This document shows positions 26,126 through 51,900 of a stretch of DNA of 64,000 nucleotides, one piece after another. The first letter of the stretch is position 1. Each line of letters begins with the position of its first letter. Both the position numbers and the translations under genes were made by a program. The notes beneath the pieces are model-generated. The model was not told the origin of the DNA, searched no databases, and worked only from the letters and a program-made list of their open reading frames with translations. This stretch comes from an uncultured Gammaproteobacteria bacterium (GTDB taxonomy: Bacteria > Patescibacteriota > Microgenomatia > Daviesbacterales > UBA10151), in contig CAYMUB010000059.1 of the NCBI GenBank assembly GCA_964393545.1, positions 4,571 through 68,570 of the forward strand. The letters are read 5' to 3'.

Positions 26126-27670
26126 TTAATATGGTTCCCGAAGTTGGACAGAAATAGTTCCAAACTTCTTTTCTTCGACAATCTTGGTAAAGTATCCCTC
26201 TACTCTTAAGAAATTATCTATATCAAATTTTCTAATTCCTATAGTTGGTTCAATAATTAAAAACTGTTTTTTTGGAAGATTAGATCTAGAGTTAATAGTT
26301 GTAAGATTGCCAGGATATCCTTCAGCTTTAGGACCGATCCAAACAGGAAGATATCCATATTCTTCCTTTCCATACCAATTAAACAAATAATCCCAGGTTG
26401 TATTAATACTAAGTGGTACTGTAAGAGCACCTACTGCAAAAGGCTGACCTTGTAATTGATAATAAATATAATCCAAAACCCTTCTTTGATTTGAGGTAGT
26501 CATACCTGGTTGAATAACCATATCTGAATTTAATCCATTAGGATTGATAGTTGAAATGGAAAATAAGTTATTAGTAATAACAATAACTAGGATAAGAATA
26601 CTTAGAATAACTTTGCCAGAGGAAAAGAGTTTGTTTATTAAATAGGATACAAAAATAAGTAGGCTAACTGAGGTAGCAGGACTATAATAATAACTGTAAA
26701 CACCAGAGAAAATGTAAAGCGACAAACCAAAAACAAACCAAATTATCAAAAAAAGAATCTTTTCTCTTGTTTGTTTTTGGCGGTATAAATAAATTGTTAT
26801 TATCAAAAGCAAAATTCCTAAAAATGGAGTAATTTGATAATTTACTAAAAATGAATCATGTAAGAAACGATTTATAATAAACAAGGTTTCTCTAAAATGT
26901 ACTCCAGAGAAAAAGTGTGATCCTGAGCTATTGGGATATTGGAGAATTAAATTTATCATAAATCTATACTTTAATTCGGTTAAAATAAAGGAGGATGTAG
27001 TTGCGATAAAAATTAGGATGGATAAAACTATCCATTTTATCTTAACTGTTATAATTTTCTTTCTGAAAAAAATAAAAAAGGCAATAAAAGCAGGAACAAG
27101 ATAAGCAAAGCCATAATGAAATTGTATTGATAAACCCAGCCCCAAAACAGATAATAATATTCCCCAAGGTTTCTTCAAAAAAAGATAAAGGCAAAGTCCA
27201 AGATAAAAAAGAAGAACTGTAATAACTGCTAAAGGCTGATGTGAAAGAAATATTGAATATTGTGATTGTTCATACGAAATGGCAAATAAAATAGCAGTAA
27301 TAATGCCGACTCTTTTGTTAAATAAAATTGAAGCAATTGGAAAAACTAGAAATACCCCTAAGGCATTCCAAACTCTAAAGAATGCAGATGCAGCTTCTGG
27401 GCTTTTGTGAAAAAGCAGATAAATGGGTGCATAAAGATAAAATATTAAAGGACCAGGAAAAAGTTTATTGCTTAAAAAAGAAGGAGGACCAATAAGCTTA
27501 AGATCTCCTTTTAGGAGCTCTAAAGAAGTAAATGAATCCCGTGCCTGGTCAAAAGAAAAATGAACATTGTTCGGAAAATACAAGAAGCGTACAATAAGGG
27601 CAATTAGAAAAATAACAAATAAGCAAATAGCAAGCTTATGCTTCAGAAAAAAAATACCCATATGAAACAC
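26126..27670 (-). CDS. GT-C/ArnT-PMT-like membrane glycosyltransferase paralog
   Basis: 514 aa multi-TM; LIGPPSFLSNKLFPGPLIFYLYAP; C-terminal YGYLPVWIGPKAEGYPG. Confidence 0.6.
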   Translation of the reverse strand: MFHMGIFFLKHKLAICLFVIFLIALIVRFLYFPNNVHFSFDQARDSFTSLELLKGDLKLIGPPSFLSNKLFPGPLIFYLYAPIYLLFHKSPEAASAFFRVWNALGVFLVFPIASILFNKRVGIITAILFAISYEQSQYSIFLSHQPLAVITVLLFYLGLCLYLFLKKPWGILLSVLGLGLSIQFHYGFAYLVPAFIAFFIFFRKKIITVKIKWIVLSILIFIATTSSFILTELKYRFMINLILQYPNSSGSHFFSGVHFRETLFIINRFLHDSFLVNYQITPFLGILLLIITIYLYRQKQTREKILFLIIWFVFGLSLYIFSGVYSYYYSPATSVSLLIFVSYLINKLFSSGKVILSILILVIVITNNLFSISTINPNGLNSDMVIQPGMTTSNQRRVLDYIYYQLQGQPFAVGALTVPLSINTTWDYLFNWYGKEEYGYLPVWIGPKAEGYPGNLTTINSRSNLPKKQFLIIEPTIGIRKFDIDNFLRVEGYFTKIVEEKKFGTISVQLREPY

Positions 27671-27696
27671 ACAATCTAGTTTTATTTTATCTTTTT

Positions 27697-29226
27697 ATGA
27701 ATAAAGTTACAAAGGTTATTTTAATTATTCTAATGGCTGGTTTTTTATACCGCTTGTTATTAACTTCAAATGGAAACTTTCTTTTTAATATGGATAATGC
27801 CCGGGATTTTATTGATGTTAGGGAAATGGTATCTTTGCATAAATTAAGATTAACCGGACCAACCTCGGCAATAGCAGGTTTGTATAATGGTCCTCTTTGG
27901 TATTATCTTTTGGCAGTTCCTTATATTATTAGCGGCGGTGATCCATACGGTGCCATTCTCATGGAGATAATTCTTTGGTTTACTGGAGGATTTTTCTTGT
28001 TGAAGCTGATCAGAGGTTTTAGCGGATGGTTAATAATACCTATAGGTATGGTGTGGATTGCTTCAAACTATATAGTTTTAGCAACTTTGTATTCTTTTAA
28101 TCCTAATCCGGTAACATTACTAACTCCTGTTTTCATTTATGGATTAGTGGAATATTTAAAAGGAAAAAGATTATGGATGATCCTGGTTTGGTTTTTAGCA
28201 GGGGCTTTTTTCAATTTCGAAATGAACTTTGGGCTTTTTACTCCACTAATTATTATTCTTAGTTTAATTTTAGCAAACAAGAAATTACTACTGGATAAAT
28301 TTTTCTGGATTGGCATCTTGATATTTATTCTTACTCTTATGCCTCAACTACTATTTGATTTAAAGCATCAATTTATTATGAGTAAAGCTGTAGTTAGTTT
28401 TTTAGCAGAAAATAAAAGCAGCGGATTTAATCCTTTAAGCAGAGTAACAATAATTGGAAAAAGTTATTATGATGTTTTTCAGGGCACAATGATGAATCAA
28501 AAGATTCTTTCCTGGACCATATTACTTTTGGCAATACCAACAGCCATTTTTTTGTTATCAAAAAAAAGTAAGAATATTATTGTTTTAGTTACCTCACTTT
28601 TTATATTAATTCCATTCATAGGGTATCTAATACTTCCTGTAAGTGTTAATTCTTGGCATTTGGGAGGGTTTGCCTCTGCCTCCTTGATATTAATTGCTTT
28701 TATTATTTATAGGTTTTGGACAATTAATTTTTTAGGCAAAATTATCTCACTAATTTTGTTTATGTCCCTAATTTTTTATCCCATAAGGGAGATGACAAAT
28801 ATTTTTGCCCATGATTTTTTTAAATCTTTGGATCCCTCCTTATTTAAAAATGAAATAGCAGCTATTGATTATGTATACAAATATGCAGATGGTAAAAACT
28901 TTAAAGTCTATACTTATTTGCCTTCAGTCATAGATTATCCTTATCAGTATTTAATCTGGTGGCATGGATTAAAAAAATATGGTTATCTTCCAGAAGATTA
29001 TGCTTATGCCCCAAATAAACCAAAATATATCTCAAGTAAGGAAAGCTTTTCAGCTAGTATAGACTCCCTTAAAAAAAGAGAAAATTACAATTTAGTTTTT
29101 CTAATTTCAGAACCAAATCATAACTATACCCGTTATGGTTGGGAAGGTGATTTTATTAAATTAAAAAACGTGGAAGTACAAATGATTGGACCGCTCAGGA
29201 TCGATATTAGGAAAGAGGTTATCTAA
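27697..29226 (+). CDS. GT-C/ArnT-PMT-like membrane glycosyltransferase paralog
   Basis: 509 aa multi-TM; LTGPTSAIAGLYNGPLWYYLL; C-terminal YGYLPEDYAYAP. Confidence 0.6.
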   Translation: MNKVTKVILIILMAGFLYRLLLTSNGNFLFNMDNARDFIDVREMVSLHKLRLTGPTSAIAGLYNGPLWYYLLAVPYIISGGDPYGAILMEIILWFTGGFFLLKLIRGFSGWLIIPIGMVWIASNYIVLATLYSFNPNPVTLLTPVFIYGLVEYLKGKRLWMILVWFLAGAFFNFEMNFGLFTPLIIILSLILANKKLLLDKFFWIGILIFILTLMPQLLFDLKHQFIMSKAVVSFLAENKSSGFNPLSRVTIIGKSYYDVFQGTMMNQKILSWTILLLAIPTAIFLLSKKSKNIIVLVTSLFILIPFIGYLILPVSVNSWHLGGFASASLILIAFIIYRFWTINFLGKIISLILFMSLIFYPIREMTNIFAHDFFKSLDPSLFKNEIAAIDYVYKYADGKNFKVYTYLPSVIDYPYQYLIWWHGLKKYGYLPEDYAYAPNKPKYISSKESFSASIDSLKKRENYNLVFLISEPNHNYTRYGWEGDFIKLKNVEVQMIGPLRIDIRKEVI

Positions 29227-29638
29227 CAGTAATTAAACGCGTATTACCTTCTTCTTTTTTAATTTTTATCCTGGTGGTATTTTTGGGTAGATATTCTTTT
29301 ATTTTTTCCGCCCATTCAATTAATACAATACTATTAGAATTAGACCAAATCTCTTCCAGTCCTAACTGCTTAATATCAGGTATCTTTTCTAATCTATACA
29401 AATCAATATGAAAAAGTGTCCTATTGCTTTTGGATAATTTATGCTGTCTGATTAAAACAAAAGTAGGAGAAATAATTTTTTCTTTAATTCCCAGCTCTTT
29501 AGCAAAGCCTTGTACGAAAGCTGTTTTACCAGCTCCTAAATCTCCACTTAGAGCGATTACCCCTTTAGTTATTTCTTTTGCTAAATTTGCTGCTATTTTC
29601 TTTGTACTTTTAATTGATTTAGATATATATTGTTTCAT
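29219..29638 (-). CDS. tsaE: tRNA threonylcarbamoyladenosine biosynthesis ATPase TsaE (YjeE)
   Basis: 139 aa; Walker A GDLGAGKT and conserved TsaE core. Confidence 0.85.
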   Translation of the reverse strand: MKQYISKSIKSTKKIAANLAKEITKGVIALSGDLGAGKTAFVQGFAKELGIKEKIISPTFVLIRQHKLSKSNRTLFHIDLYRLEKIPDIKQLGLEEIWSNSNSIVLIEWAEKIKEYLPKNTTRIKIKKEEGNTRLITVR

Positions 29639-30918
29639 AATGATTTTCTTCTCAGGTAAATATATCCTAAAAAAGAAACACCAGCAAATACCAGAGTTGC
29701 CCCAATTAATAATGAATAGTTAAATTGCTTTTTATCTTTAACTTCAATTTTGGCTGAAGGTGTGGCTGAGGAAGTGGCTCCAGCAATAGAAGCAACTTGA
29801 TAATTAAATTTAGGAATAGAGGTTGAGTTGGCAAAAGAAGTTTTTGGAAAAGGGGTAGATGAGGTAGCAGAAGGTTTTGCAGTAGAAGATAATGAAGTAT
29901 TGGTGGATGTTCGCTGGTCAGTTCCACCCTGACTATTGCTTACATTTTGAATATTGATATTAGATTCATTGCTCCAAGTCGGACCTGAACCAGAATTTGT
30001 GTATCTGCCTGTTTTAAAAATATAATCTCCTGAACCTGTAAATCCTGAATCTTCACTATCTGGTTGCACTTCTAAACTGCCTGACCAGTTTCCTGCAGAG
30101 TCAGTAGTTATTGGGTATTGCTCAGAATATTTGTTGCCATTTTTAACCCAGTTTCCAGCTACCCTGGTATAGCCAAAATAATTTGAGCCATCAGATTTTT
30201 TAAAAGCACCTTTTAGATAAAATAAGGTATTTGGATTATTTGGTAAGGACAGGTTGATTGAAACATTAAATGATTGATCAGAATTTATTTGAGAAGGGAT
30301 GTTTGAGATGATGAATGAATTGGAATTTGGTGGAGTGGCAGGAGATGGAGTTGTGATAGGGGTAGGAGTTGGGGTTGAGGTTGGAGTTTCTAAGGGTCCA
30401 CCATTACTACTGCCTTTAGAACTAGAAGCAAGCATAGTCCAACTGCCTCCATCCGGACTGCGACCAATGGATTTATTAACTCCAGGATCCGAGCTATATG
30501 AATAATTATCTATGGTGGTGCCACTATCATCTTTAAGATAAATACTGTCTCCAGAATTATTCAAACGATTAGTTACATCAAATGTTGCAAATCCATTAGC
30601 AGTAATATTGCCCGATAGAGTTTTCATTGTTGAAGTGCTGTCAACAAGGATCCAGCTAGTCAAATCAATGGTGTTTGTGGTTGGATTATAAATCTCAATC
30701 CAGTCACTGCCCGGAGAGGGATGAGGCATGAATTCATTCAATACCACAGAATTGGCAAAAATAGATCCAGCTCCAAAAAAGAGGAAAAGGAAGGCAAGAA
30801 TTAGTAGCTTTATTCTCACTACACTAATAGTAGCACTAGAGGATATGCCAGTACAAAGTAACAATGCCATTTTCATGATCAATGACAATCCCTTTACCAA
30901 CAGATGATCCCCCGGCAA
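29635..30918 (-). CDS. Cell-surface protein with lamin-tail domain (LTD), Ser/Thr/Pro-rich stalk and C-terminal TM anchor
   Basis: VLNEFMPHPSPGSDWIEIYNPTTNTIDLTSWIL is a classic LTD signature; true start probably an internal Met (~30876) to avoid overlap with upstream gene. Confidence 0.7.
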   Translation of the reverse strand: MPGDHLLVKGLSLIMKMALLLCTGISSSATISVVRIKLLILAFLFLFFGAGSIFANSVVLNEFMPHPSPGSDWIEIYNPTTNTIDLTSWILVDSTSTMKTLSGNITANGFATFDVTNRLNNSGDSIYLKDDSGTTIDNYSYSSDPGVNKSIGRSPDGGSWTMLASSSKGSSNGGPLETPTSTPTPTPITTPSPATPPNSNSFIISNIPSQINSDQSFNVSINLSLPNNPNTLFYLKGAFKKSDGSNYFGYTRVAGNWVKNGNKYSEQYPITTDSAGNWSGSLEVQPDSEDSGFTGSGDYIFKTGRYTNSGSGPTWSNESNINIQNVSNSQGGTDQRTSTNTSLSSTAKPSATSSTPFPKTSFANSTSIPKFNYQVASIAGATSSATPSAKIEVKDKKQFNYSLLIGATLVFAGVSFLGYIYLRRKSL

Positions 30919-32878: not shown

Positions 32879-33545
32879 ATTTACCCTCCTTGGTATCTTT
32901 AGAAATTTTGCCGTTTTTCAAAATAACTACTCTTCTTTTTAAAGTATTTACTATTTCTTGATTATGAGTAGCCATCAAAATTGTAGTTCCCCAGGAATTA
33001 ATTTCATTTAAGAGTTGAATTACTCCCCAGGCAGTTTTTGGATCCAAATCTCCGGTTGGTTCATCTGCCAGTAGTACATCAGGTTTTCCCACAACTGCTC
33101 TGGCTATGGCAGTTCTTTGAGCTTCACCTCCAGAGAGTTGTCTGGGGAAAAGATTTCTTTTATCCCAAATTTCTACCAGTTTTAAGATGTGTTCAACTAA
33201 TTTCTCAGTCTCCTCATCTTTTTTACCTTGTACCTCTAAACTCAAAGCTACATTTTCAAAAACTGTTCTATCATCCAACAGCTTAAAATCCTGGAAAACA
33301 ACTCCTACTTTTCTTCGTAAAGATGGAACATCCTTATCTTTTATTTTTGTGATGTCAATGTTTCCAACAGTTACTTTACCTGTGGAAGGTTTTACCTCTT
33401 TTGTCAGGATTCTTAAAAGTGTAGATTTACCAGCCCCAGACGGACCAACAATAAATACAAATTCACCGCTGTTTATTTCCAGGGAAATATTATCTAAAGC
33501 AAAGTTTGCACCAAATTTTTTATTAACTGAGTCGAAAACAATCAT
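32871..33545 (-). CDS. ftsE: Cell division ATP-binding protein FtsE
   Basis: 224 aa ABC ATPase: Walker A GPSGAGKST, signature LSGGEAQR, Walker B LLADEPTG. Confidence 0.9.
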   Translation of the reverse strand: MIVFDSVNKKFGANFALDNISLEINSGEFVFIVGPSGAGKSTLLRILTKEVKPSTGKVTVGNIDITKIKDKDVPSLRRKVGVVFQDFKLLDDRTVFENVALSLEVQGKKDEETEKLVEHILKLVEIWDKRNLFPRQLSGGEAQRTAIARAVVGKPDVLLADEPTGDLDPKTAWGVIQLLNEINSWGTTILMATHNQEIVNTLKRRVVILKNGKISKDTKEGKYE

Positions 33546-33549
33546 TCAT

Positions 33550-33999
33550 TTACTTAATTTCTTCTACTTTACCAACATCCATTAGCCAACCTTCTTTCAA
33601 AGCTTTTTGAGTTTCACCATATATCTTAACTTTTTTACCCTCATATTTTGAAAGATCAACAACAGAGGATGTAAGAGCTACAGGTACTCCAGTTTCACGC
33701 ACTAAAGTGTGAGTACCTTCTACATATTCTCCGGGATCTTTCGGTTGAGGTTTTACTGCAATTTTTCCTTCAGCAAAATCCTTAAAAGTACGTGTGTCTG
33801 TTTGAGCGTTTTTGGCAACCGGTACTCCTAAACCTGCGCTTTTTAAGTCCCCACCACCTTTGTTTGAGAGAATATAACCTGTAATCACTCCTAAAACAAC
33901 TGAGACAACAACCACAGTTAAAAGAAGTTTAGATGGATTATTTGTAGAGATGAAATCTTTGGTTATTTTATTAGCCTTCGAAATAGCAGTATCTTCCAT
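33550..33999 (-). CDS. Hypothetical membrane-anchored protein
   Basis: 149-aa ORF with one TM helix; no family recognised. Confidence 0.45.
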   Translation of the reverse strand: MEDTAISKANKITKDFISTNNPSKLLLTVVVVSVVLGVITGYILSNKGGGDLKSAGLGVPVAKNAQTDTRTFKDFAEGKIAVKPQPKDPGEYVEGTHTLVRETGVPVALTSSVVDLSKYEGKKVKIYGETQKALKEGWLMDVGKVEEIK

Positions 34000-34037
34000 A
34001 TATTAATACTAATATAACAACAAATTGAGTAATTTGT

Positions 34038-35117
34038 CTACCCCGAAGTTTGTAAAGACTTAAGTTCAGATTCAATAAATTGGTTTAAGTCCCCATCTAA
34101 AACAGCATCTGTATCCGATGTTTCAACATTTGTTCTTAAATCTTTAACCATATGGTAAGGATGTAGTACGTAGGATCTTATCTGAGTTCCCCAGGAGGCT
34201 TGGGTTGCTCCACCTTTCAACTGTTTGGTTAGTTGTTGTTTTTCTTGTTCTTGTTTTTCCCAAAGCTTACTCAAAAGCAGTTTCATGGCATTTTCCCTAT
34301 TTTGAAGCTGAGATCTTTCTGTTTGAGCTGTGACAGTAAGTCCGGTTGGAATATGTTTAACTCTAACTGCTGTTGATACTTTATTGACATTTTGTCCTCC
34401 TGCACCTCCTGATCTAAAAGCTTCAAACTCTATATCTGATTCATTTATTTCAACTTCTGAAGGGTTAATCACAGGTAAAACTTCCACCAAAGCAAAAGAG
34501 GTTTGTCTTAGTTTATCAGCATTGAAAGGAGATTGTCTAACCAACCTATGTGTGCCTTTTTCTCTTTTCAAATATCCAAAGGCAAAAGGTTCATGGATAA
34601 TCATTGAGACTGTTTTTATGCCTGCTTCTTCACCTGCATCTTCATCAGTCACCTCGTACTTCCAGTCTTGCCTATCAAAATATCTTTGAAACATCCTAAC
34701 AAGCATTGCTGCCCAATCCATGGCCTCAACTCCTCCTGCTCCTGAGTGAACAGATAAGATTGCCTCACTATCATCATGAGGATTAGATAAAAATAACTTT
34801 AATTCTAATTTATCCAAGATTTGTTCTAATTCTTTAACTTCCTTGTTTAAATCTCCCTGCATAGAGGGTTCTCCTGATATTTCCAAAGCATTATTGATTC
34901 TGGTTTCCAAATCAGTCATTGTGGTCAATGTCTTTTGTTTATTTGACAGCTGACGGCTGATAGCTGAGGACTCTTGAGGATTATTCCAAAACCCCTCTTT
35001 CATAGTCTGAGCTTCAAATTCCCTGATTTCAGTTTGCAACTTATCCTGATCAATCGCCTGAGTAACTTTCCCAAACCTGTCATTTAAATCCTTTAATTCA
35101 TTTTGTATTTCTTCCAT
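34038..35117 (-). CDS. prfB: Peptide chain release factor 2 (no programmed frameshift)
   Basis: 359 aa; SPF tripeptide (RQSPFNA) and GGQ motif ([13 protein letters not shown]); single uninterrupted ORF. Confidence 0.88.
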
Positions 35118-35226
35118 TAGGAGATTATATTACGAATGAAGTGAGTAATACAGTTTTTTGCAACGCAAAAGTATATAACTTATTTTTGATCTGAAATATC
35201 TTTAGCATTCATTGATCTTTGCTAAG

Positions 35227-36471
35227 TTAATAAAATGGCGGTGGGATAGTAAGTAATTGTTTTGTATTATTCTGTTTATCGTTTATAAATTTTTTTATAC
35301 GGGCAGTTATTTTATAAGGAAATTTACTGCTAAGAAAAAGTGGAACATAATTAGGAATAATTATTTTTCTTACCACAATAGCCGAGTTTACAGAGAAATC
35401 TTTCACAAACACTGCTTGCTTTTGGCTTATTATCTCCTGAGTAAGAGAAGAATAAATTGTTCCAGGACTAGTTTTTTTAAAAAAATCTTTTTTGTAATTC
35501 CTACTATCTACTATCTCCCCTTTCAATAAGAAGGCAATGTCTTTGAGAGGTTTTTCCTGAAGCCAATAATTTTTAGTTTCATGAAAAAAGTAATTAAGAG
35601 AAAAGGATTCTGATGTTTCTTCTGAAGGAATCCCTATCTTATAATTTCTACTTTTAACATATAATTTAAAAGCTTCCAGAATAGCTTGAGTTATTGCTAT
35701 TGTAAGATTAGTATGAGTCTTCAATCCAATTGTAACAACCGAATTTTCATCGAAAAGCAGAATACCAATAGTATAAACAGGCAGATCGTATGAAAAATCA
35801 AGTACAACTAGGTATATTTTATAGTTTTGTTTTAAAGATTGGATGAGTTCTTTTAATTCCCTTGATTGTTCGAAATCTATAATTTTTGGCGAAGTTTTTG
35901 TCAAATAGTAAAGCATAAAATTATCCCGTTCTATTACTTCTAATAGACCCGCAAGGAGTGCAGAACTTTCATCAAAATTTGCTGCAGCACCAGTACTTAT
36001 TGGAATTCGGAGTTTAGGTTCATTCGGTGCAAACAAATAGTGTGAATACACAAATTGAGTAGGAATAAGTACCCGTTTTTTCTCACTTTGGGAATAGCTT
36101 TCTGTCCATCTGAATTTTGAGAAAGCGGTGTCTGTTTCTCTTTCGAAAATACTAAATATAGATGGTGAGATACCGGTTCTTGGTTGTTGTAGTAATATTG
36201 TTGCTTCTTTTTGTGTGTAGGTAATTGATAGCCACTCAATCGCTTCCATTACTGCTTTAATGAATGCTCCTTTAAGAGAAGTGTCGTTTGCAGAGCTAAA
36301 GCTATTAGTATCTCCTCTTCTATACTCAATACTTACGATAAAAATATTTTTTTTCTCAGAGAGTGGAAAAATTTCTACAAAAGCCTCTTGTATTATTCCC
36401 TTTCGTTTTAATGAGTGGTAGAGTTTTCTTACTTTTTCGTACATATCAATATTAGATAAAATAGTCAGCAT
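35227..36471 (-). CDS. YcaO-domain protein (ATP-dependent amide-backbone activating enzyme: cyclodehydratase/thioamidation family)
   Basis: 414 aa; canonical YcaO ATP-binding motif ISTGAAANFDESSALLAGLLEVIERD and C-terminal Pro-rich tail ...IPPPFY*. Confidence 0.85.
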   Translation of the reverse strand: MLTILSNIDMYEKVRKLYHSLKRKGIIQEAFVEIFPLSEKKNIFIVSIEYRRGDTNSFSSANDTSLKGAFIKAVMEAIEWLSITYTQKEATILLQQPRTGISPSIFSIFERETDTAFSKFRWTESYSQSEKKRVLIPTQFVYSHYLFAPNEPKLRIPISTGAAANFDESSALLAGLLEVIERDNFMLYYLTKTSPKIIDFEQSRELKELIQSLKQNYKIYLVVLDFSYDLPVYTIGILLFDENSVVTIGLKTHTNLTIAITQAILEAFKLYVKSRNYKIGIPSEETSESFSLNYFFHETKNYWLQEKPLKDIAFLLKGEIVDSRNYKKDFFKKTSPGTIYSSLTQEIISQKQAVFVKDFSVNSAIVVRKIIIPNYVPLFLSSKFPYKITARIKKFINDKQNNTKQLLTIPPPFY

Positions 36472-36991
36472 TCCTAAAGAGAATTTTTTTATTTTTATTT
36501 GGTGATTGTAAAGACCTTTCTATGCTGCTATTAATTCGTTGGGGATTACTAATAAATTCTGCTATCGGGATCGAAGAAAGCGATGAAGTATGAGGAAATT
36601 TTATTTCCTTATCGTCAATATGAAAACAAATGTAAGAGTAGTCACTTTTAATAATTTTTTTAGGTATAAAAATATCGTTGTAAACTTGAAGATCCTCGAT
36701 ATTACAGTTAGGTTTTTGTTTATACCTATTTAAAATACCTTGTTCTAATCCAGTGGGTTCTAATTTTTTGCCCCACCGAAGATTTATTGCCACTCCCTTT
36801 CCATAGTTGAACTCGGGTTTTAGCTTTTCTATAAATAGTTTTGACTTGGGTGCATTACAAATAGGAGAGAAGTCAGTTTGGAGCATCAGAAAAAGAAGTT
36901 TGATTAAATGAAGAGCATTCTTATTAGTTTTTGATTTTTTTGTATATGTCTGTGTTACAAAGGCTTTTAAAAACTCTCGAAGTGCTGTCAT
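36452..36991 (-). CDS. Hypothetical protein, candidate YcaO partner (translationally coupled; RRE/E1-like or TfuA-like role unproven)
   Basis: 179-aa ORF overlapping YcaO start by 20 nt and 21 nt downstream of the 155-aa ORF; no family recognised. Confidence 0.5.
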   Translation of the reverse strand: MTALREFLKAFVTQTYTKKSKTNKNALHLIKLLFLMLQTDFSPICNAPKSKLFIEKLKPEFNYGKGVAINLRWGKKLEPTGLEQGILNRYKQKPNCNIEDLQVYNDIFIPKKIIKSDYSYICFHIDDKEIKFPHTSSLSSIPIAEFISNPQRINSSIERSLQSPNKNKKILFRNADYFI

Positions 36992-37012
36992 GATTTTATA
37001 GGCAAGGAGGTT

Positions 37013-37480
37013 TTATGTACAACAGCAGATTCCACGTTTTTCACGGCTAACATATGATTCGCTTTCTTCAATAGGGCCATTGCCAACACTGCTGTTACTG
37101 CTGTTACTGCTGTTACTTATTGTCCAGTCTATAAGAGGAGTATTGGCATATATTTTTTCTACTAATGCAGGTTTTCCAAGTCTGGTAACTGCAAACCACT
37201 CAAGCGGTACCATAAATGTAAAGGCTGCTTGTACTGCCCGCTCTATAAATGGCTTAAGTCTTCGTGGAATAGTAGTTCCCTGTCCTTCCATAAATGCAAC
37301 CTGATTTTGTGCGCGTTGATGGGTGATTCCCAGGAGGACCACTCCAGCTTGACCAAAACCTCTCTCGTTAAGTGTCCGCAATATTTCGGTAGAGCTATTA
37401 GGAGTTCGATCATGTTTTATGAGTTGAGCCTGATACTGTTCAATAGCAGCTCGGGTGAGCGAACGAAATGGTTCAGTCAT
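37013..37480 (-). CDS. Hypothetical 155-aa protein with Ser/Asn repeat and Cys-rich C-terminus (...SNSSNSSNSSVGNGPIEESESYVSREKRGICCCT*); candidate YcaO substrate/precursor
   Basis: First gene of the three-gene operon; locally GC-richer than neighbours; C-terminal low-complexity plus CCC tail. Confidence 0.5.
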   Translation of the reverse strand: MTEPFRSLTRAAIEQYQAQLIKHDRTPNSSTEILRTLNERGFGQAGVVLLGITHQRAQNQVAFMEGQGTTIPRRLKPFIERAVQAAFTFMVPLEWFAVTRLGKPALVEKIYANTPLIDWTISNSSNSSNSSVGNGPIEESESYVSREKRGICCCT

Positions 37481-37504
37481 ACCTATTAATTATAACACTG
37501 TTTA

Positions 37505-37532
37505 ATTCTAAGAGTTTTATATCGACTGGCAA
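37505..37532 (-). promoter_or_regulatory. Putative promoter of the YcaO operon (minus-strand TTGCCA-16 nt-TAGAAT)
   Basis: Reverse complement of 37505-37532 gives TTGCCA...TAGAAT ~25 nt upstream of the 37480 start. Confidence 0.3.
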
Positions 37533-37682
37533 TTGTCCTTGGGTTTAGAACATCAGCCTAGGGGAGTACTTATTTTGTCATTCTCATAATGCAGCATTCA
37601 CTATATGAAAAACAAGTTTAAAGAACTAAAAAAATTGCAGTACGGAAAATTAGTTTAAACCTCGTAAAGAAAATGGTAGAAT

Positions 37683-39161
37683 TTGAGAATGATTTTGTGT
37701 ATTGATACTAAAGATAAAAAGTTAATTAGTGTTTCATTAAAAAAAATCAGTAAATTTTACAAAGAACGCTATATTTTTTATCTGGTAATTGTATTCTACT
37801 TAATTACATCATCATTATATGCTTTGATGTCGGTTGTAAATCACAGTCATTTTCTAACATTTTCTGACTTAGGAATTTTTAACCAGGCAATTTGGCAGTA
37901 TAGTCAGTTTAAATATCCTTTCAGCACATTTCATCTTAATCGTTTTTTTCTTGGTGATCATTTTCATCCAATTTTGATTTTACTTGCGCCGTTATACTGG
38001 ATTTATCCAGATGAGAAAATTTTACTAGTGGTTCAACCTTTTATAATGCTTTTTGCTATTTTCCCTTTATTTTTAATATCTCTGAAGCTGACAAAATCAA
38101 TATTTTTCAGTTTAAGTATAATTTTTGCTTTTTCGTTTTATATTCCACTACAATATACGATCTTTTACGATTTTCATGAAATTGTTTTTTTACCTCCTTT
38201 ATTTGCATGGGCATATTATTTTTTTCTTTATAATAATAAAAAGCTGCTAACTCTGTTTTTAATTTTATCCTGTATGGTAAAAGAGGAAATAGGATTTTTT
38301 ATTTCAATGTTTGGTTTGTGTTTGTTTCTTTTCCAAACCAAGTGGAGAAAATATGGATTAGCTTTGTTTATATTAGGGATTTTATACACATATTTTATGA
38401 TTTACGTAGGAATACCTTTTTTTGGCGGTAAGTATTTGTATTTAAATTATTTAGGAAGTAAAACAATACTTGATTTGATTAAAAACCCCATGGGTTTAAT
38501 AAATTTGTTTTTTGATGCTCCTCTAAAAATAGAGACCCTTTATCTTACGTTTTGGCCATATGGCTTCCTTCCTATTTTTTCACCAATTGGATTTCTCCTA
38601 TCTTTTGAGCAATTCTTTACTAGGTTTTTAGATCAAAGGACTATAAGCCATTGGACAATTGGCTATCATTACTCTGCTCAGATGACTATTATTGTTTCAA
38701 TAGGCTCAATTTGGTCTGTATATTTTTACACTAAATTTATTCCTAAGTATAGGAAGGCGATCATTATTTGCATAGGTGTGTTACTAATATTTCTCACAAG
38801 AATTGAGCAAATAAATAGGTCAGCAATCTTACTGGTAAAAAGACCTCAGTTTTGGGTGCGTGATATTTGGATGGATAATATTGATCAGGCGATCAGATTG
38901 ATTCCTAAAAATGCATCAGTTGCAGCTCAAAATAATATCATTTCACATTTATCTACCAGAGAAAAGGTTTATCTTCTAAAAGATTTTGATAAAGCAGATT
39001 ATATAATTGTAGATTTGCATACAGGCCAGTCGGATTATAATTTTGCTTTTGGAGATAACCCATCCAAGCTCAAAGAAAAAATTAATTTAGGAATAAGCTC
39101 AGGTAAGTTTAGTCTTTTATTTCATCAGAATGAAGTTTATTTACTAAAAAGCAAAAGGTGA
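37683..39161 (+). CDS. Polytopic membrane protein (GT-C-like/DUF-type), N-terminus resembles a TsaB start
   Basis: 492 aa with >10 TM; first ~20 aa (ILCIDTKDKKLISVSLKK) mimic the TsaB-like ORF at 39175 (VLYINTKEQKSISVSLKK); true start may be an internal Met. Confidence 0.55.
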   Translation: MRMILCIDTKDKKLISVSLKKISKFYKERYIFYLVIVFYLITSSLYALMSVVNHSHFLTFSDLGIFNQAIWQYSQFKYPFSTFHLNRFFLGDHFHPILILLAPLYWIYPDEKILLVVQPFIMLFAIFPLFLISLKLTKSIFFSLSIIFAFSFYIPLQYTIFYDFHEIVFLPPLFAWAYYFFLYNNKKLLTLFLILSCMVKEEIGFFISMFGLCLFLFQTKWRKYGLALFILGILYTYFMIYVGIPFFGGKYLYLNYLGSKTILDLIKNPMGLINLFFDAPLKIETLYLTFWPYGFLPIFSPIGFLLSFEQFFTRFLDQRTISHWTIGYHYSAQMTIIVSIGSIWSVYFYTKFIPKYRKAIIICIGVLLIFLTRIEQINRSAILLVKRPQFWVRDIWMDNIDQAIRLIPKNASVAAQNNIISHLSTREKVYLLKDFDKADYIIVDLHTGQSDYNFAFGDNPSKLKEKINLGISSGKFSLLFHQNEVYLLKSKR

Positions 39162-45071: not shown

Positions 45072-46272
45072 TTTCTACTACAATCGAACAATGAAGAGAG
45101 TTTCAGTTGTTCTTCCCACATTTAATGAAAAGGCCAACATTGAAAGTACTGTAGAAAAAGTTTTGCAGCAAGAAAAAGAGCTGTCTGGTTGGGAAATACA
45201 TATCGTGATCGCTGATGATGTCAGATCTACTGACGGACTAGAACAAGTTGTAAAAAAGATGTCACCTGAAAAGAATATTCATTATATAAAAGTTGAACCA
45301 GGGTTAGGGTTAGGGTTGATAGAAGGACATAAATATGCTCTTGATCATTTACATCCAGATATCTTGGCGCAGTTAGATGCAGATGGGCAGGTAGTGCCTG
45401 ATGTCTTAGTAAGACTAGTTAAAGCGATTGAAGATGGATATAGTTTGGTAATAGGATCAAGATTTGTTGAAGGTGGGAAAAACCAACTGTCTTTTGCAAG
45501 AAGACTTTTCACGATGGGTGCATCAGTATTTTGTAGGCTTATGATAGGTCCATGGGACATTAAAGAGGTTACAAATTCTGCCCGTGCTTTTACACCAGCT
45601 CTTTTTAAGAAAATTAATTTAGAAAGACTCCCTTGGAGAGAAAATTCTTTTATTATTCAACCGGCGTTTTTACATGAGGCAATTTTAGCCGGGGCAAAGT
45701 ATAAAGAAGTACCTTTGATTTTCAAAAACAGACAAGAAGGGTATTCAAAGAATAAAGTTTTCAATTACACATATGATGTAATTACTTATTGTCTTGATGT
45801 AAAGCTTAACAGCTTAGGGATAAATATTCCATTTTTTAGAATTACCAGAAGAGCAAAAACTTTAGTTAAATTTAGTTTAGTAGGGGTAATGGGGACACTG
45901 GTTGATTTTTTCTTTTATAAATTCTTTATCAATTTTCTTGCTTTGGCACCAGCTACTTCAAAAGGATTCTCTGCGGAAATTGCCATCATGAATAATTTTT
46001 TTCTAAATAATTTTTGGATATTTAAATACAGAAAAACAAAAACTAATTTTTGGCAGAAACTGGGAATTTTCAATTTAGTTTCATTGGGGGGATTAATTAT
46101 TGCAGTATTGATAGTCAAATTGTTACATCACACTTATGGTGATGGGTTTATTTTGGTAGGATCAAAAAGCATTGCTTATAATAACTTTTACTTTTTTGCT
46201 ACCATTCCGCCTGTAATGATTTGGAATTTTACTGTAAATCACCTTATTACTTGGCGGCATAAGGAAGATTAA
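45055..46272 (+). CDS. GT2 polyprenol-phosphate glycosyltransferase (DPM1-like) fused to GtrA-like C-terminal TM domain
   Basis: VVLPTFNE...IADDVRSTDG...DADGQ GT2 motifs; C-terminal 4-TM GtrA-like segment. Confidence 0.75.
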   Translation: MRSSPSFYYNRTMKRVSVVLPTFNEKANIESTVEKVLQQEKELSGWEIHIVIADDVRSTDGLEQVVKKMSPEKNIHYIKVEPGLGLGLIEGHKYALDHLHPDILAQLDADGQVVPDVLVRLVKAIEDGYSLVIGSRFVEGGKNQLSFARRLFTMGASVFCRLMIGPWDIKEVTNSARAFTPALFKKINLERLPWRENSFIIQPAFLHEAILAGAKYKEVPLIFKNRQEGYSKNKVFNYTYDVITYCLDVKLNSLGINIPFFRITRRAKTLVKFSLVGVMGTLVDFFFYKFFINFLALAPATSKGFSAEIAIMNNFFLNNFWIFKYRKTKTNFWQKLGIFNLVSLGGLIIAVLIVKLLHHTYGDGFILVGSKSIAYNNFYFFATIPPVMIWNFTVNHLITWRHKED

Positions 46273-47438
46273 TTAAAAGGTGATAAGTTAGGAATTGGGG
46301 CGGTATTTGATAGCAGAAAATTCTGGGTATATAAATAAATTGCCAAAGCAATAATTGGCAAAATAATTTTAAATTCCCTGGATGTTAAAATCTTCTCAAA
46401 GGCAATTAGTAAAAAAGGAAATATTGGTAAAGTGTATCTGCTAATATCCCGGTGAGCAACAAATGCGGAGGCTATCAGATAAGTAAGTACAAAAAATGCC
46501 AGTGGATATATTCTCTTTTGCCACAGGGTAACGGCCCCCAAAAATCCAAGCATAAAAACATAAACAATATCCTCAAGCCAGATATCACCTACCCAGAATT
46601 GATGTTTATTAAATACCTGGAAAGGTGGAAAGGTTAAATGAATATTATCACCTGAATGAAAGTATGCCCAAAAATCCCCAAAAGTATGAGAGTACAGATA
46701 AAATATTCCCAAAAGTCCTAAAGGGATAGAAAGAAACGGAAAATACCTTAAATGATTTAAAAATGCCTTTTTAATACCTAATGTTTTTGACTCCAAATAA
46801 TATTTGTAATGGACAAATATTGCCAAAGAGATAAAAAGCAGAATTCCCGGGGGTCTGGTTAGTTGAGCAAGTAGTCCCAAAAAAGCAGATAAATATAAAT
46901 CCATCTGTTTGTAATTTTTTTCAAACTTTAAGAAAAAATAAAGAGCAGAAATTACAAAAAATATAAACAAAGGCTCGGCAGATCCAACAGAATGTACAAT
47001 TACCCACCTGGCAGGCAAAATTAAAAACAATGCAGACAAAAATAAAGGATAGTGAGTTAATTTAAAATCCCTGACTAAAAAGTAAAAAGCCCAAACTGCC
47101 AAAAGGGTGGATAATAAAGTAACAAATAACATTGATTTTAAATATCCCAAAACAGGTGCAAACGTGCTTATTACTAAAGAATATCCAGGGAAGTGGGAGG
47201 CAAAATACACTGGGTCTTGAGATTGAGGTAAAGAGGTGATTAGACCGGGATTATAATAACTTTTGGCTATAACAATATACTCTAATCCATCAAAATTCCG
47301 GTAAATTGTGGAAAATCCTTCTTTAAAAGATAATCCCCAAAAGCTAGGTAAAGACAACAAGTGTGGTAACCAAACAAGAAAAGTAATAATTATTGTTAGT
47401 GCAGCTAGCAAACTTAAATTTTTAATGGTTTTACCCAT
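46269..47438 (-). CDS. Polytopic membrane protein, GT-C-like (mannosyltransferase/DUF2029-like)
   Basis: 389 aa, ~10 TM helices, family not firmly assigned. Confidence 0.45.
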   Translation of the reverse strand: MGKTIKNLSLLAALTIIITFLVWLPHLLSLPSFWGLSFKEGFSTIYRNFDGLEYIVIAKSYYNPGLITSLPQSQDPVYFASHFPGYSLVISTFAPVLGYLKSMLFVTLLSTLLAVWAFYFLVRDFKLTHYPLFLSALFLILPARWVIVHSVGSAEPLFIFFVISALYFFLKFEKNYKQMDLYLSAFLGLLAQLTRPPGILLFISLAIFVHYKYYLESKTLGIKKAFLNHLRYFPFLSIPLGLLGIFYLYSHTFGDFWAYFHSGDNIHLTFPPFQVFNKHQFWVGDIWLEDIVYVFMLGFLGAVTLWQKRIYPLAFFVLTYLIASAFVAHRDISRYTLPIFPFLLIAFEKILTSREFKIILPIIALAIYLYTQNFLLSNTAPIPNLSPFN

Positions 47439-47455
47439 ACTTTAATCATTCTAGC

Positions 47456-49642
47456 ATGACAAGGTTTGGCTATGCTACACTTTATAACATGAAACTTGAA
47501 CAGCTTTCAGTTTTTTTCCCATCTTTTAATGAAGAAGGTAATATTGAACTTACAGTCAGCAAAGCAATCAAGATTTTAGAGCAATCAGGCCTGCAATATG
47601 AAATTATTATAGTTAATGATGGTTCAACAGACAAAACCGCATTTGTTGCAGAAAATTTATCTAAAAGAAACTCAAAAGTTAGAGTTATCAATCATCCTCA
47701 AAACCTGGGTTATGGAGAGGCCTTAAAGTCAGGTTTCTATAATGCCAAATATGACACTATTGTCTATACAGATGGGGATGGTCAATTTGACTTTGCTGAA
47801 GTTACTAAATTCTTAGAAAAAATACAAAATTTTGATTTGGTAATAGGCTACCGTATCAAAAGACAAGATCCTTTTCTTAGGAGATTATTTGGTAAAGGTT
47901 GGAGATTATCTTTATTAATTTTCTTTGGACTAACTTTAAAAGATGTGGATTGTGGTTTTAAAATGATTAAAAGATCAGTACTTAAGAAAATTCCTCACCT
48001 GGAATCTCAAAGAGGAGCTATGATTAATGCTGAAGTTGCAATTAAAGCTAAGAAATTTGGTTTTAAAGTAGATCAAGTTGGAGTAAACCATTATCCCCGT
48101 ATTTCAGGTAAACCTACTGGAGCAGGTGTTAGGGTGATTATTAAATCTTATCTTGACTTGCTAAGGTTGTGGTGGAAACTTAAAGATCAGAAAATGCTAT
48201 TTATAGCTTTAATCTTAATCTTAGGTTTAGCAGCTTTCTTAAGACTCTACCAAATTCCTGGATATATGACTTTTTTAGGGGATGAGGGTAGGGATGCTTT
48301 AATTATGAAGAAAATATTATCCGGTGATTTGCCTATGATTGGTCCACCCACTTCTGTTGGGAATATCTATTTAGGGCCGCTTTATTACTACATGATGTTT
48401 TTATCCATGGCTCCAACAAATTTAAACCCTATTTCTGCTGCAATTATGAATGCGCTGATTGGGATTTTAATTGTGGCCTTAGTTTATTATTTAGGAAAAA
48501 TCTGGTTTGGTAGGATTGGGGGGATGGTTGCTTCCTTTCTTTATGCTATATCACCAGTGAATATTATCTACTCCCGTTCTTCCTGGAATCCCAACCCGGC
48601 CCCCTTTTTTGCATTACTTGGAATGTTTAGTCTTTATAGGGTACACAAAACAGGTAATTTCTTGTGGCTGGTGCTAACAGGTTTTGCTTTTGCTGCAGCA
48701 GCACAAATGCACTATTTATCCTTAATACTAATTCCAATAGGAGTAATTTTGTTGATATATGAGGTCTGGGCTAGAAAAAATAGTCACATGAATTCTAAAA
48801 ATCTACCCAAGGGGATCATGTTAGGGATGATAACTTTTGCATTAGTAATGTCACCTTTAGTTATTTTTGATTTTAAACATAATTTCTTAAACTATAGAGC
48901 AATTACTGAACTCTTGTCTGGAAATGGTGCTGTTAAAGCAGCTGTTTTCTCAAATTTAGCAAGAATCCCATCTCTTTTTTCCTATAACTTAATTGGTAGA
49001 TATATGACAGGAGAGAACTATATTTTACAAATATTACTTTCCCTGCTTTTGCTCTTACCCTTTTTGTTATTGAGAACCTGGTCAATACTGGCTTTAGGAG
49101 TATGGCTTTTAGTAGGATTGTTTGGAGTCTCTTTTTACCAGCAAGATATATATGATCACTATTTAGGTTTTATGAATCCAGTCCCTTTTTTACTTTTGGG
49201 GTCTATTACTACAATTAAAATAATACCCCGTAAATTTGTAGCCGCTTTAATGATAACTTTAGTTCTCTCTTTAACTTATGTTAATTTTCAAAAAAGCCCT
49301 TTAAGGTTTCCCCCGAATAATCAATTGAAAAGAACAATTGATGTAGCAAAATTTATTATTAACGCATCACAAAATAAGGACTTTAATTTCGCATTAATTG
49401 CAAAAAGCAACTACGATTCTGCCTATCAATTTTATTTAGATAAACTTGGTCATACACCAAAACAAGTCCCATTTGATAAAACCGGTCAATTGTTTGTAGT
49501 TTGTGAAGATGAAAGTTGTGACCCAACTCATAATTCAAAATATGAAATAGTAGCTTATGGTTGGTCAAAGATAGATTGGATGAAAGAATTTGCGGGTGTT
49601 AAAATTTACAGACTTGTTCCTAATCCAACTGGTAAACCATGA
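47456..49642 (+). CDS. Bifunctional fusion: N-terminal GT2 (DPM1-like polyprenol-P-sugar synthase) + C-terminal GT-C/ArnT-like membrane transferase domain
   Basis: 728 aa; N-terminal VNDGSTD...TDGDGQ GT2 motifs; C-terminal multi-TM with MIGPPTSVGNIYLGPLYYYMMFL motif shared with the ArnT-like paralogs. Confidence 0.7.
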   Translation: MTRFGYATLYNMKLEQLSVFFPSFNEEGNIELTVSKAIKILEQSGLQYEIIIVNDGSTDKTAFVAENLSKRNSKVRVINHPQNLGYGEALKSGFYNAKYDTIVYTDGDGQFDFAEVTKFLEKIQNFDLVIGYRIKRQDPFLRRLFGKGWRLSLLIFFGLTLKDVDCGFKMIKRSVLKKIPHLESQRGAMINAEVAIKAKKFGFKVDQVGVNHYPRISGKPTGAGVRVIIKSYLDLLRLWWKLKDQKMLFIALILILGLAAFLRLYQIPGYMTFLGDEGRDALIMKKILSGDLPMIGPPTSVGNIYLGPLYYYMMFLSMAPTNLNPISAAIMNALIGILIVALVYYLGKIWFGRIGGMVASFLYAISPVNIIYSRSSWNPNPAPFFALLGMFSLYRVHKTGNFLWLVLTGFAFAAAAQMHYLSLILIPIGVILLIYEVWARKNSHMNSKNLPKGIMLGMITFALVMSPLVIFDFKHNFLNYRAITELLSGNGAVKAAVFSNLARIPSLFSYNLIGRYMTGENYILQILLSLLLLLPFLLLRTWSILALGVWLLVGLFGVSFYQQDIYDHYLGFMNPVPFLLLGSITTIKIIPRKFVAALMITLVLSLTYVNFQKSPLRFPPNNQLKRTIDVAKFIINASQNKDFNFALIAKSNYDSAYQFYLDKLGHTPKQVPFDKTGQLFVVCEDESCDPTHNSKYEIVAYGWSKIDWMKEFAGVKIYRLVPNPTGKP

Positions 49643-51899: not shown

Positions 51900-51900
51900 C

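Follow-up and report, generated by a model that had tools for sequence, protein, structure and literature searches.

A rare YcaO cassette with a Cys-rich C-terminal tetrad as its predicted site of azoline formation

The stretch analysed here (64,000 nt of contig CAYMUB010000059.1, hereafter the window), from an uncultured bacterium placed by GTDB in the Patescibacteriota, encodes a YcaO-domain protein preceded by two short genes on the same strand. The first of these open reading frames (ORFs), ORF155, encodes 155 amino acids (aa) that end in three Cys residues and a Thr; the second, ORF179, lies between it and the YcaO gene. The locus raises the question of whether this terminus is what the YcaO acts on and, if so, what would be made of it. 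The original prediction, made from the letters of the window alone, had taken ORF155 for a possible long-leader precursor whose Cys triplet is heterocyclised or otherwise modified, and had allowed that its N-terminal region could equally be an independent folded domain. Our analyses favor ORF155, with a probability of roughly 0.65, as the substrate of a minimal three-gene modification cassette in which azolines would be formed ATP-dependently on the C-terminal tail.

The terminal tetrad and the loci that carry it

The ORF155 protein ends ...SREKRGICCCT*, which is exactly the C-terminus reported in the original prediction (...TISNSSNSSNSSVGNGPIEESESYVSREKRGICCCT*). The subfamily to which it belongs is very rare, with four independent loci among billions of proteins. 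A word-indexed search of 5.8 billion proteins matched ORF155 only to itself, and the word-indexed searches overall returned the query itself, two YcaOs and one substrate only. A full HMMER scan of 1.84 billion representatives found four true relatives of ORF155 residues 7-138 (E 3e-17 to 6e-4), one of them annotated as a Patescibacteria bacterium protein, and ORF155 is accordingly a real gene. The relative P0005 is 40% identical (E 3e-17), while P0006, P0007 and P0008 are 27-30% identical. Every family member shows YANTP(L/V)(V/I)DW at the end of the domain, followed by a low-complexity stretch rich in Ser, Asn and Gly.

Among these relatives, P0005 carries the Cys tail (...RENQDCTCS*) and lies in locus L004, where an ORF179 homologue comes next and then the contig ends. 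P0006 and P0007 have no Cys tail and no YcaO within 6 kb and 20 kb, respectively; P0008 also has no Cys tail, and its contigs (<1 kb) are too short to judge context. The proposal that ORF155 is a YcaO substrate modified on its C-terminal Cys residues is supported by this distribution, in that the tail is present in every YcaO-linked relative and missing from the relatives without a nearby YcaO; the modification itself is an inference. As the second possibility raised at the outset had it, the N-terminal region is an independent domain, of a family that occurs also without a nearby YcaO. The contig that encodes the Cys-less homologue P0006 (L005:1600-2181) is 6.4 kb long and also carries, about 1.3 kb away, a replication initiator of the Phage_CRI type (L005:3493-4530), so that the stand-alone N-domain family may be carried on small replicons or filamentous-phage-like elements.

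Two further loci complete the set. L001 encodes an ORF179-like domain fused to a YcaO (P0003, 530 aa), followed by the 225-aa ORF225, which ends ...SSDDCCCT*. L002 encodes an ORF179 homologue, a YcaO (P0004), a SagB-family dehydrogenase and, convergent with these, ORF194 (at least 194 aa), which ends ...TEGPGCCCS*; L012 is from the same organism as L002. At each locus (4/4) there is one long protein that ends in four residues drawn exclusively from Cys, Ser and Thr, at least two of them Cys. Among 809 frames of at least 100 aa from the window and 33 fetched loci, such an ending was seen only in these four proteins and in one Bacillus precursor of a thiazole/oxazole-modified microcin (TOMM). 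Within the tetrad, position 2 is Cys or Thr (Thr in P0005) and position 4 is always Ser or Thr. These changes keep each residue heterocyclisable and are conservative for cyclodehydration, and not for metal binding or lipidation.

The substrates of L001 and L002 do not contain the ORF155 domain and have a different N-domain. A profile built from the four partner sequences only (ORF179 and its homologues) detected ORF194 with 64.9 bits (E 4e-16) and ORF225 with 43.5 bits (E 1.5e-9, both E-values scaled to a million sequences), and both proteins are therefore paralogues of the ORF179 partner. Relative to the partner they have about 19 extra residues ending CCC[S/T] and have lost its invariant C-x-H...F-P-H. 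When the ORF155 and ORF179 families were compared using hhalign, only the terminal CCC stretch aligned. Judged from these alignments, the tail alone is common to both substrate types, and the leader domain is exchanged between two unrelated families. This reverses the hallmark of peptides that are made on ribosomes and modified after translation (RiPPs) that had been put forward as a check, namely a conserved leader ahead of a hypervariable core, since here it is the four-residue core that is conserved. The outcome is also the opposite of the one that the original prediction had named against itself, in which homologues would share a conserved enzyme fold and YcaO-linked orthologues would lack the tail.

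A GTDB scan returned no family members with the partner profile and only distant, ordinary TOMM YcaOs with the YcaO profile, and a metagenome scan for more members found one contig, from the same organism as L002. A further gene of L001, ORF230 (L001:2454-3146, minus strand, 230 aa), is convergent on the CCCT substrate gene, contains 'IRWG' and 'DYL' near its end and is similar to the partner by eye. It was dropped as a third partner-like paralogue after the partners-only profile gave no match.

A terminal Cys cluster could also be a metal-binding, redox, persulfide-carrying or lipid site that the YcaO does not modify, with the tailed proteins linked to the YcaO in another way (for example through a role in regulation, chaperoning, sulfur donation or immunity) and its true substrate encoded elsewhere. 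Cys clusters commonly bind Cu, Zn or Fe, the N-domain is known as a stand-alone family, a leader peptidase and an exporter are missing, and a cupredoxin-like gene (Pfam E 7e-6) lies beside the L002 cassette. We nevertheless consider this explanation improbable. The replacement of the second Cys by Thr in P0005 and the invariable Ser or Thr at the last position are unexpected for a metal or lipid site, and the same tail is found on two unrelated domains only where this YcaO or its partner is present. The cassette holds no alternative precursor; no other small Cys-rich precursor was found near the YcaO, ORF155 being the only nearby frame with a Cys-rich terminus. For the azoline substrate that the SagB dehydrogenase of L002 must have, the CCCS protein is the sole candidate at that locus.

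The cupredoxin-like protein of L002 is membrane-anchored (Pfam Cupredoxin_1; L002:733-1134 and L012:2996-3397, both minus strand) and is encoded divergently beside the partner/YcaO/SagB cassette. It is a possible hint of a copper link for a polyazole tail, or a coincidence.

The YcaO enzyme, its partner and the predicted chemistry

For azolines to be formed on ORF155, the YcaO has to be of the azoline-forming type, and several comparisons point in this direction. The YcaO protein of the window matches Pfam PF02624 with an E-value of 9e-35 over positions 9-323 of the 325-position profile. Its only relatives in the word-indexed search were P0003 and P0004, each with 37% identity (BLASTP), and the ATP/Mg-binding motifs EAIEW and E(V/I/L)IERDNF are invariant in all three subfamily YcaOs. 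The best NCBIfam model for each of them is the SagD model TIGR03604 (TOMM_cyclo_SagD), with 118 bits for the window protein and 140.5 and 145.9 bits for the others, while the McrA-thioamidation model methan_mark_1 reached 67-69 bits (68.5 for the window protein vs a cutoff of 365). The nearest solved structures are those of the azoline-forming TruD, MusD and LynD, followed by an archaeal thioamide YcaO. The C-termini read PPPFY (IPPPFY in the window), APPFF and PPPFF, retaining P-x-P-F with an aromatic residue in place of the last Pro; they resemble PHPFP, the ending of 18 of the 21 TOMM-type YcaOs that were retrieved from the genome scan. A PxPxP motif is tied to azoline-forming YcaOs (PMC12338566).

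The dehydrogenase of L002 provides a link of another kind. The gene directly after the L002 YcaO encodes a SagB-family peptide dehydrogenase (TIGR03605, 126.6 bits; cutoff 78.4), and since a SagB-type enzyme oxidises azolines, its position next to the YcaO ties this YcaO clade to azoline chemistry.

ORF179 is the putative partner of the YcaO. Its motifs are LRWGxK, DYxYICFH, FPH and DYW. In L002 a homologue lies immediately upstream of the YcaO, in L004 one follows the substrate, and in P0003 of L001 the domain is fused to the YcaO N-terminus. The natural fusion in P0003 argues that ORF179 is an enzyme subunit, and it mirrors the C-D fusions that define TOMM cyclodehydratases (PMC4603692). No match to ORF179 was found in Pfam, NCBIfam or PDB sequences, and hhalign against the E1-like halves of 11 fused cyclodehydratases gave a probability of <1%. 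ORF179 was also considered as an E1-like, RiPP recognition element (RRE) or TfuA partner, with no matches in any case; given how shallow the alignments are, these negatives amount to absence of evidence and no more. No match to TfuA was obtained from ORF179 or from any neighbour of the YcaO. In the literature we found no paper describing the partner family or these substrates. Residues Cys122, His124 and His134 of ORF179 make up a C-x-H and then an F-P-H that are invariant in the four partner proteins and lost in the two substrate paralogues; they could be a metal site or a catalytic site.

In the mechanism that we propose, the YcaO would act jointly with ORF179, encoded here on its own and in one relative fused to the YcaO N-terminus. 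The pair would use ATP to activate backbone amides, and the side chains of the Cys-Cys-Cys-Thr tetrad would cyclise onto the preceding carbonyls, leaving as many as three adjacent thiazolines and perhaps a methyloxazoline at the terminus. Because the window is without a dehydrogenase, azolines rather than azoles would be expected in this organism. The disordered, S/N-rich and charged tail of 33 residues would be a flexible arm reaching the active site, and the folded helical domain of 120 residues would either serve as a leader-like docking module or make up the protein's functional body.

It could also be that ORF155 is the substrate but that the YcaO thioamidates or macrocyclises the tail, forms an amidine there or carries out some other chemistry based on amide activation. 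YcaOs are chemically versatile, this subfamily scores under the curated SagD cutoff, and the partner is neither E1-like nor of another known type in a window without a dehydrogenase; in addition, the full-length proteins McrA (PMC5589413) and uL16 (PMC13063428) are thioamidated by YcaOs. Several findings make such chemistry very unlikely here. TfuA is absent, with ORF179 having no Pfam match, a SagB azoline dehydrogenase is linked to the YcaO in L002, and the SagD model outscores methan_mark_1, with TruD and LynD being nearest in structure. The tetrad varies among Cys, Ser and Thr only, which fits side-chain nucleophiles.

A number of observations weigh against azoline formation on ORF155 by the cassette. 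There are only four independent loci, three of them on contigs of 1.2-4.6 kb, and the L004 contig ends before any YcaO could be seen. All three YcaOs score under the curated TIGR03604 cutoff of 219.25, and their C-terminal motif differs from the canonical PxPxP. ORF179 shows no detectable relation to E1-like, Ocin-ThiF or any RRE-containing protein, and its role is a guess. Classical leader recognition does not readily account for one partner family serving two unrelated N-domains. No dehydrogenase, no C39 or other dedicated protease and no ABC or other dedicated exporter was found in the 64-kb window using tblastn and a Pfam scan, the latter covering all window ORFs of at least 130 aa except a few that overlap larger genes. 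Finally, daptides apart, no characterised YcaO directly modifies a C-terminal residue (PMC12338566); it follows that a free carboxylate beside the reaction site may disfavour the reaction, and the Thr or Ser at the end may escape modification.

Architecture of ORF155 and the fate of the tail

The two parts of ORF155 differ sharply in their predicted order. AlphaFold2 (AF2) with five sequences modelled the N-domain with a predicted local distance difference test (pLDDT) score of about 85 over residues 3-110 and helices at residues 3-22, 29-40, 42-66, 76-101 and 104-110, while a model from the ORF155 sequence alone was poor (pLDDT 46). A fold match for the N-domain was not obtained, Foldseek against BFVD being empty at E up to 0.001. 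Neither Pfam nor NCBIfam (each at E up to 1) nor PHROG contained a family match to ORF155, a PDB profile search returned noise only, and P0005 had no NCBIfam match at E up to 0.01. The suggestion of a long NHLP/Nif11-type leader did not survive these profile scans, and membership of a known family was rejected on the same grounds. The ORF155 tail also lacks a Gly-Gly cleavage site. Membrane anchoring of ORF155 was rejected, as no transmembrane segment was predicted and the top Kyte-Doolittle 19-residue window was 1.08. The N-domain may serve recognition in the way of a leader, or it may have a function of its own.

The disorder check that had been advised for the tail was positive, with AF2 leaving its residues below a pLDDT of 50 (Table 1). 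The perfect 9-bp tandem repeat encoding (SNS)3, already noticed in the original prediction, was confirmed within this region by Tandem Repeats Finder (period 9, 3.3 copies, 100% matches, score 60); it is in frame and far beyond chance, and its consensus, ACTGCTGTT, is a rotation of the unit given earlier, GCTGTTACT.

What would happen to the tail after modification separates azoline formation as set out above from one of its variants, in which ORF155 is a classical RiPP precursor. A protease and a transporter encoded elsewhere would then release a short core such as GICCCT, following Lys-Arg, and export it as a small polyazoline natural product that might be a metallophore or an antibiotic. 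Consistent with this, a dibasic KR is found two residues ahead of the ORF155 tetrad, NHLP precursors have a similar length (PMC4603692, PMC12455567), and the ordinary TOMM clusters of other Patescibacteria (L013 and L014) include genes for an ABC protein and a C39-like peptidase. However, the KR is not kept in the other three tails, and the core is conserved rather than hypervariable. The search for a protease or transporter that had been recommended found neither a dedicated protease nor a dedicated exporter in the 64-kb window (Pfam scan), and none is present in the four cassettes. Two of the substrates, moreover, are paralogues of the partner protein, suggesting a protein-protein function. 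Cleavage and export of the tail is thus unlikely.

An alternative that we advance tentatively, as possible and still rather unlikely, is a modification at the level of whole proteins instead of a pathway to a peptide natural product. The YcaO and its partner would read not a leader but a short C-terminal tag, C-[C/T]-C-[S/T]-COOH, presented on a disordered arm, and would install a contiguous polyazoline directly on the free C-terminal end of folded proteins whose architectures are unrelated, the partner paralogues included. The terminus would then be a prosthetic group, for example a metal-chelating or redox-active one.

Genomic setting and likeness to known YcaO systems

Table 1. Positions of the cassette genes and of features in and around ORF155, counted from the first letter of the window
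Feature	Position	Strand	Description
ORF155	37013..37480	minus	155 aa, ATG start, TAA stop; predicted substrate with helical N-domain, S/N-rich linker and C-terminal CCCT
Terminal tetrad Cys-Cys-Cys-Thr	37016..37027	minus	Predicted cyclodehydration site; C[C/T]C[S/T]* end common to all four loci
Disordered tail, residues 121-155	37016..37120	minus	pLDDT <50 for residues 123-155 (AF2)
Tandem repeat, 9 bp x3.3, perfect	37088..37117	minus	Encodes (SNS)3S in disordered linker
N-terminal domain, residues 1-120	37121..37480	minus	Helical bundle ending in conserved YANTPL(I/V)DW
ORF179	36452..36991	minus	Putative YcaO partner protein, new family
YcaO-domain protein	35227..36471	minus	414 aa, predicted ATP-dependent cyclodehydratase; Pfam PF02624
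Promoter-like site	37505..37532	minus	TTGCCA, 16 nt, TAGAAT; 10/12 consensus matches, only suggestive

ORF155 and ORF179 are separated by a 21-nt gap, ORF179 and the YcaO gene overlap by 20 nt, and the gene for release factor 2 (RF2) follows 109 nt after the YcaO (Table 1). The place of ORF155 as the first gene of the YcaO operon, as originally described, was confirmed by this same-strand order and by the lack of predicted terminator-like sites in 33400..38000. The promoter-like site is found 25 nt upstream of the ORF155 start, inside a 202-bp divergent intergenic region; it is only suggestive, as the count of promoter-like sites in the region is not above shuffle expectation. An independent public assembly (L003) is 99.84% identical to window positions 35092..37015.

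The earlier remark that ORF155 is GC-richer than its neighbours also held, with a GC content of 0.432 vs 0.29-0.31 in the flanking genes, and the cause is compositional. The excess lies at codon positions 1 (0.53) and 2 (0.47), and GC at position 3 is 0.30, near the 0.22-0.29 of the neighbours; the high GC is therefore attributed to amino-acid composition, and foreign DNA was rejected as its cause. The same offset from the neighbours was observed in all four substrate genes of the family. A phage or plasmid origin of the cassette was rejected as well, tblastn having found no matches in phage or plasmid collections and none in viral contigs.

The genes of the window are mainly housekeeping and envelope genes, encoding Lon, H+-pyrophosphatase, a two-component system, GreA, LysRS, SerRS, SecA, GlnA and TsaE as well as FtsEX, a PcsB-like M23 peptidase, RF2, rhamnose synthesis and many GT-C glycosyltransferases. 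The cassette lies between housekeeping genes, with RF2 and FtsEX among those around it. The SecA protein is 44-46% identical to those of Saccharibacteria and Dojkabacteria, and this, taken with the Patescibacteria annotation of one N-domain relative, makes it most likely that the host belongs to the Candidate Phyla Radiation. RF2 (prfB, 34038..35117, minus strand) is encoded in a single uninterrupted frame of 359 aa, in which the usual programmed +1 frameshift site was not seen. GT-C-type membrane glycosyltransferase paralogues (PMT_2, YfhO, PTPS_related) are unusually dense, at 50382..58525 (plus strand), 20992..22803, 26126..29226 and 46269..49642, and include five tandem genes of 505-567 aa beside rhamnose-synthesis and GT2 genes. 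A probable surface protein of 427 aa is encoded at 29635..30918 (minus strand); it combines a lamin-tail domain (E 1e-14) with a long region rich in Ser, Thr and Pro and has a hydrophobic anchor at its C-terminus.

Metagenome-assembled genomes of Saccharibacteria and Dojkabacteria contain a compact TOMM cluster of ordinary appearance (L013:8450-12948 and L014:9667-14184). It encodes a precursor of 47-48 aa (...NCNQTSCSHTGTNSSACYG...), a YcaO of 419-423 aa that ends LQPFL, without a separate or fused E1-like partner, a SagB dehydrogenase (TIGR03605, 140 bits), a C39-like peptidase and an ABC-F ATPase, and it adjoins secA and an M23 peptidase gene.

Among characterized systems, the azoline precursors of the NHLP/Nif11 type (MprE1-10 with the YcaO MprC) are similar in having a long, stably folded leader that derives from a stand-alone protein family and precedes a C-terminal Cys core for an azoline-forming YcaO. 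Folded, protein-like leaders are thus known for azoline-forming YcaOs, in NHLP and in MprE/MprC (PMC12455567), and NHLP/Nif11 recognition involves protein-protein contacts (PMC12455567, PMC4603692). Unlike them, ORF155 has no sequence relation to these leaders (Pfam, NCBIfam), its 120-aa helical bundle has no fold match, and it has no Gly-Gly motif. Its four-residue core lies at the extreme C-terminus and is conserved while the leader domain is exchanged, and the partner, which is not E1-like, shows no detectable RRE.

Canonical TOMM systems, or linear azol(in)e peptide synthetases (SagBCD, McbBCD), pair a C protein with the YcaO D protein, often as a CD fusion. Compared with them, the window lacks a dehydrogenase, a protease, an exporter and an immunity gene, and the cassette lies among housekeeping genes. 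SagB/McbC dehydrogenases are optional, and azoline-only systems exist. ORF179 also has no similarity to E1-like or Ocin-ThiF partners, the TOMM partner being either an E1-like C protein or an Ocin-ThiF-like F protein (PMC4603692), and the substrates are of 154-225 aa vs about 50 aa. The resemblance lies in a YcaO whose partner is obligate and in some cases fused to it (P0003; C-D fusions, PMC4603692), in the SagB-type dehydrogenase of one relative and in contiguous, heterocyclisable target residues. Polyazole cores of the plantazolicin and cytolysin type likewise have adjacent runs of Cys, Ser and Thr, all made into rings (PMC4603692). Those cores, unlike the present tetrad of exactly four terminal residues, comprise at least 5-10 residues in short peptides and are usually followed by unmodified residues.

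YcaOs that act on whole proteins, as in the thioglycine of McrA (YcaO-TfuA) and the thioamide of uL16 in Pseudomonadota (PMC5589413, PMC13063428), share with this cassette protein-sized substrates, the lack of leader cleavage and export, and a housekeeping context. There, in contrast, the thioamide is internal, TfuA or a sulfur supply is required, and no terminal tetrad of Cys, Ser and Thr is involved. In the daptide system, the YcaO DapY has a PxPxP-type ending and acts on its substrate at the very C-terminus (PMC12338566). It differs in needing prior decarboxylation and amination and in forming an imidazoline, and such accessory enzymes are absent here.

The significance of the cassette would lie chiefly in mechanism, as the family is tiny (four loci) and of small ecological weight. 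Azoline-forming YcaOs are understood to need a leader-binding E1-like or Ocin-ThiF-like partner, and here an unrelated protein of 180 residues stands in that place. If azolines are indeed formed on ORF155 and its counterparts, the rules of substrate recognition by YcaOs would be widened to full-size substrates of two unrelated folds with only a four-residue terminus in common, and a very short C-terminal tag would be available for enzymatic installation of thiazolines on proteins. Should the tag be read on whole proteins, as in the tentative alternative above, this would be the first azoline modification of whole proteins and the first direct YcaO cyclisation at an unprocessed C-terminus, with a third class of YcaO partner. 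Patescibacteria retain very few accessory genes, and in them a cassette without export machinery points to a function for a modified protein.

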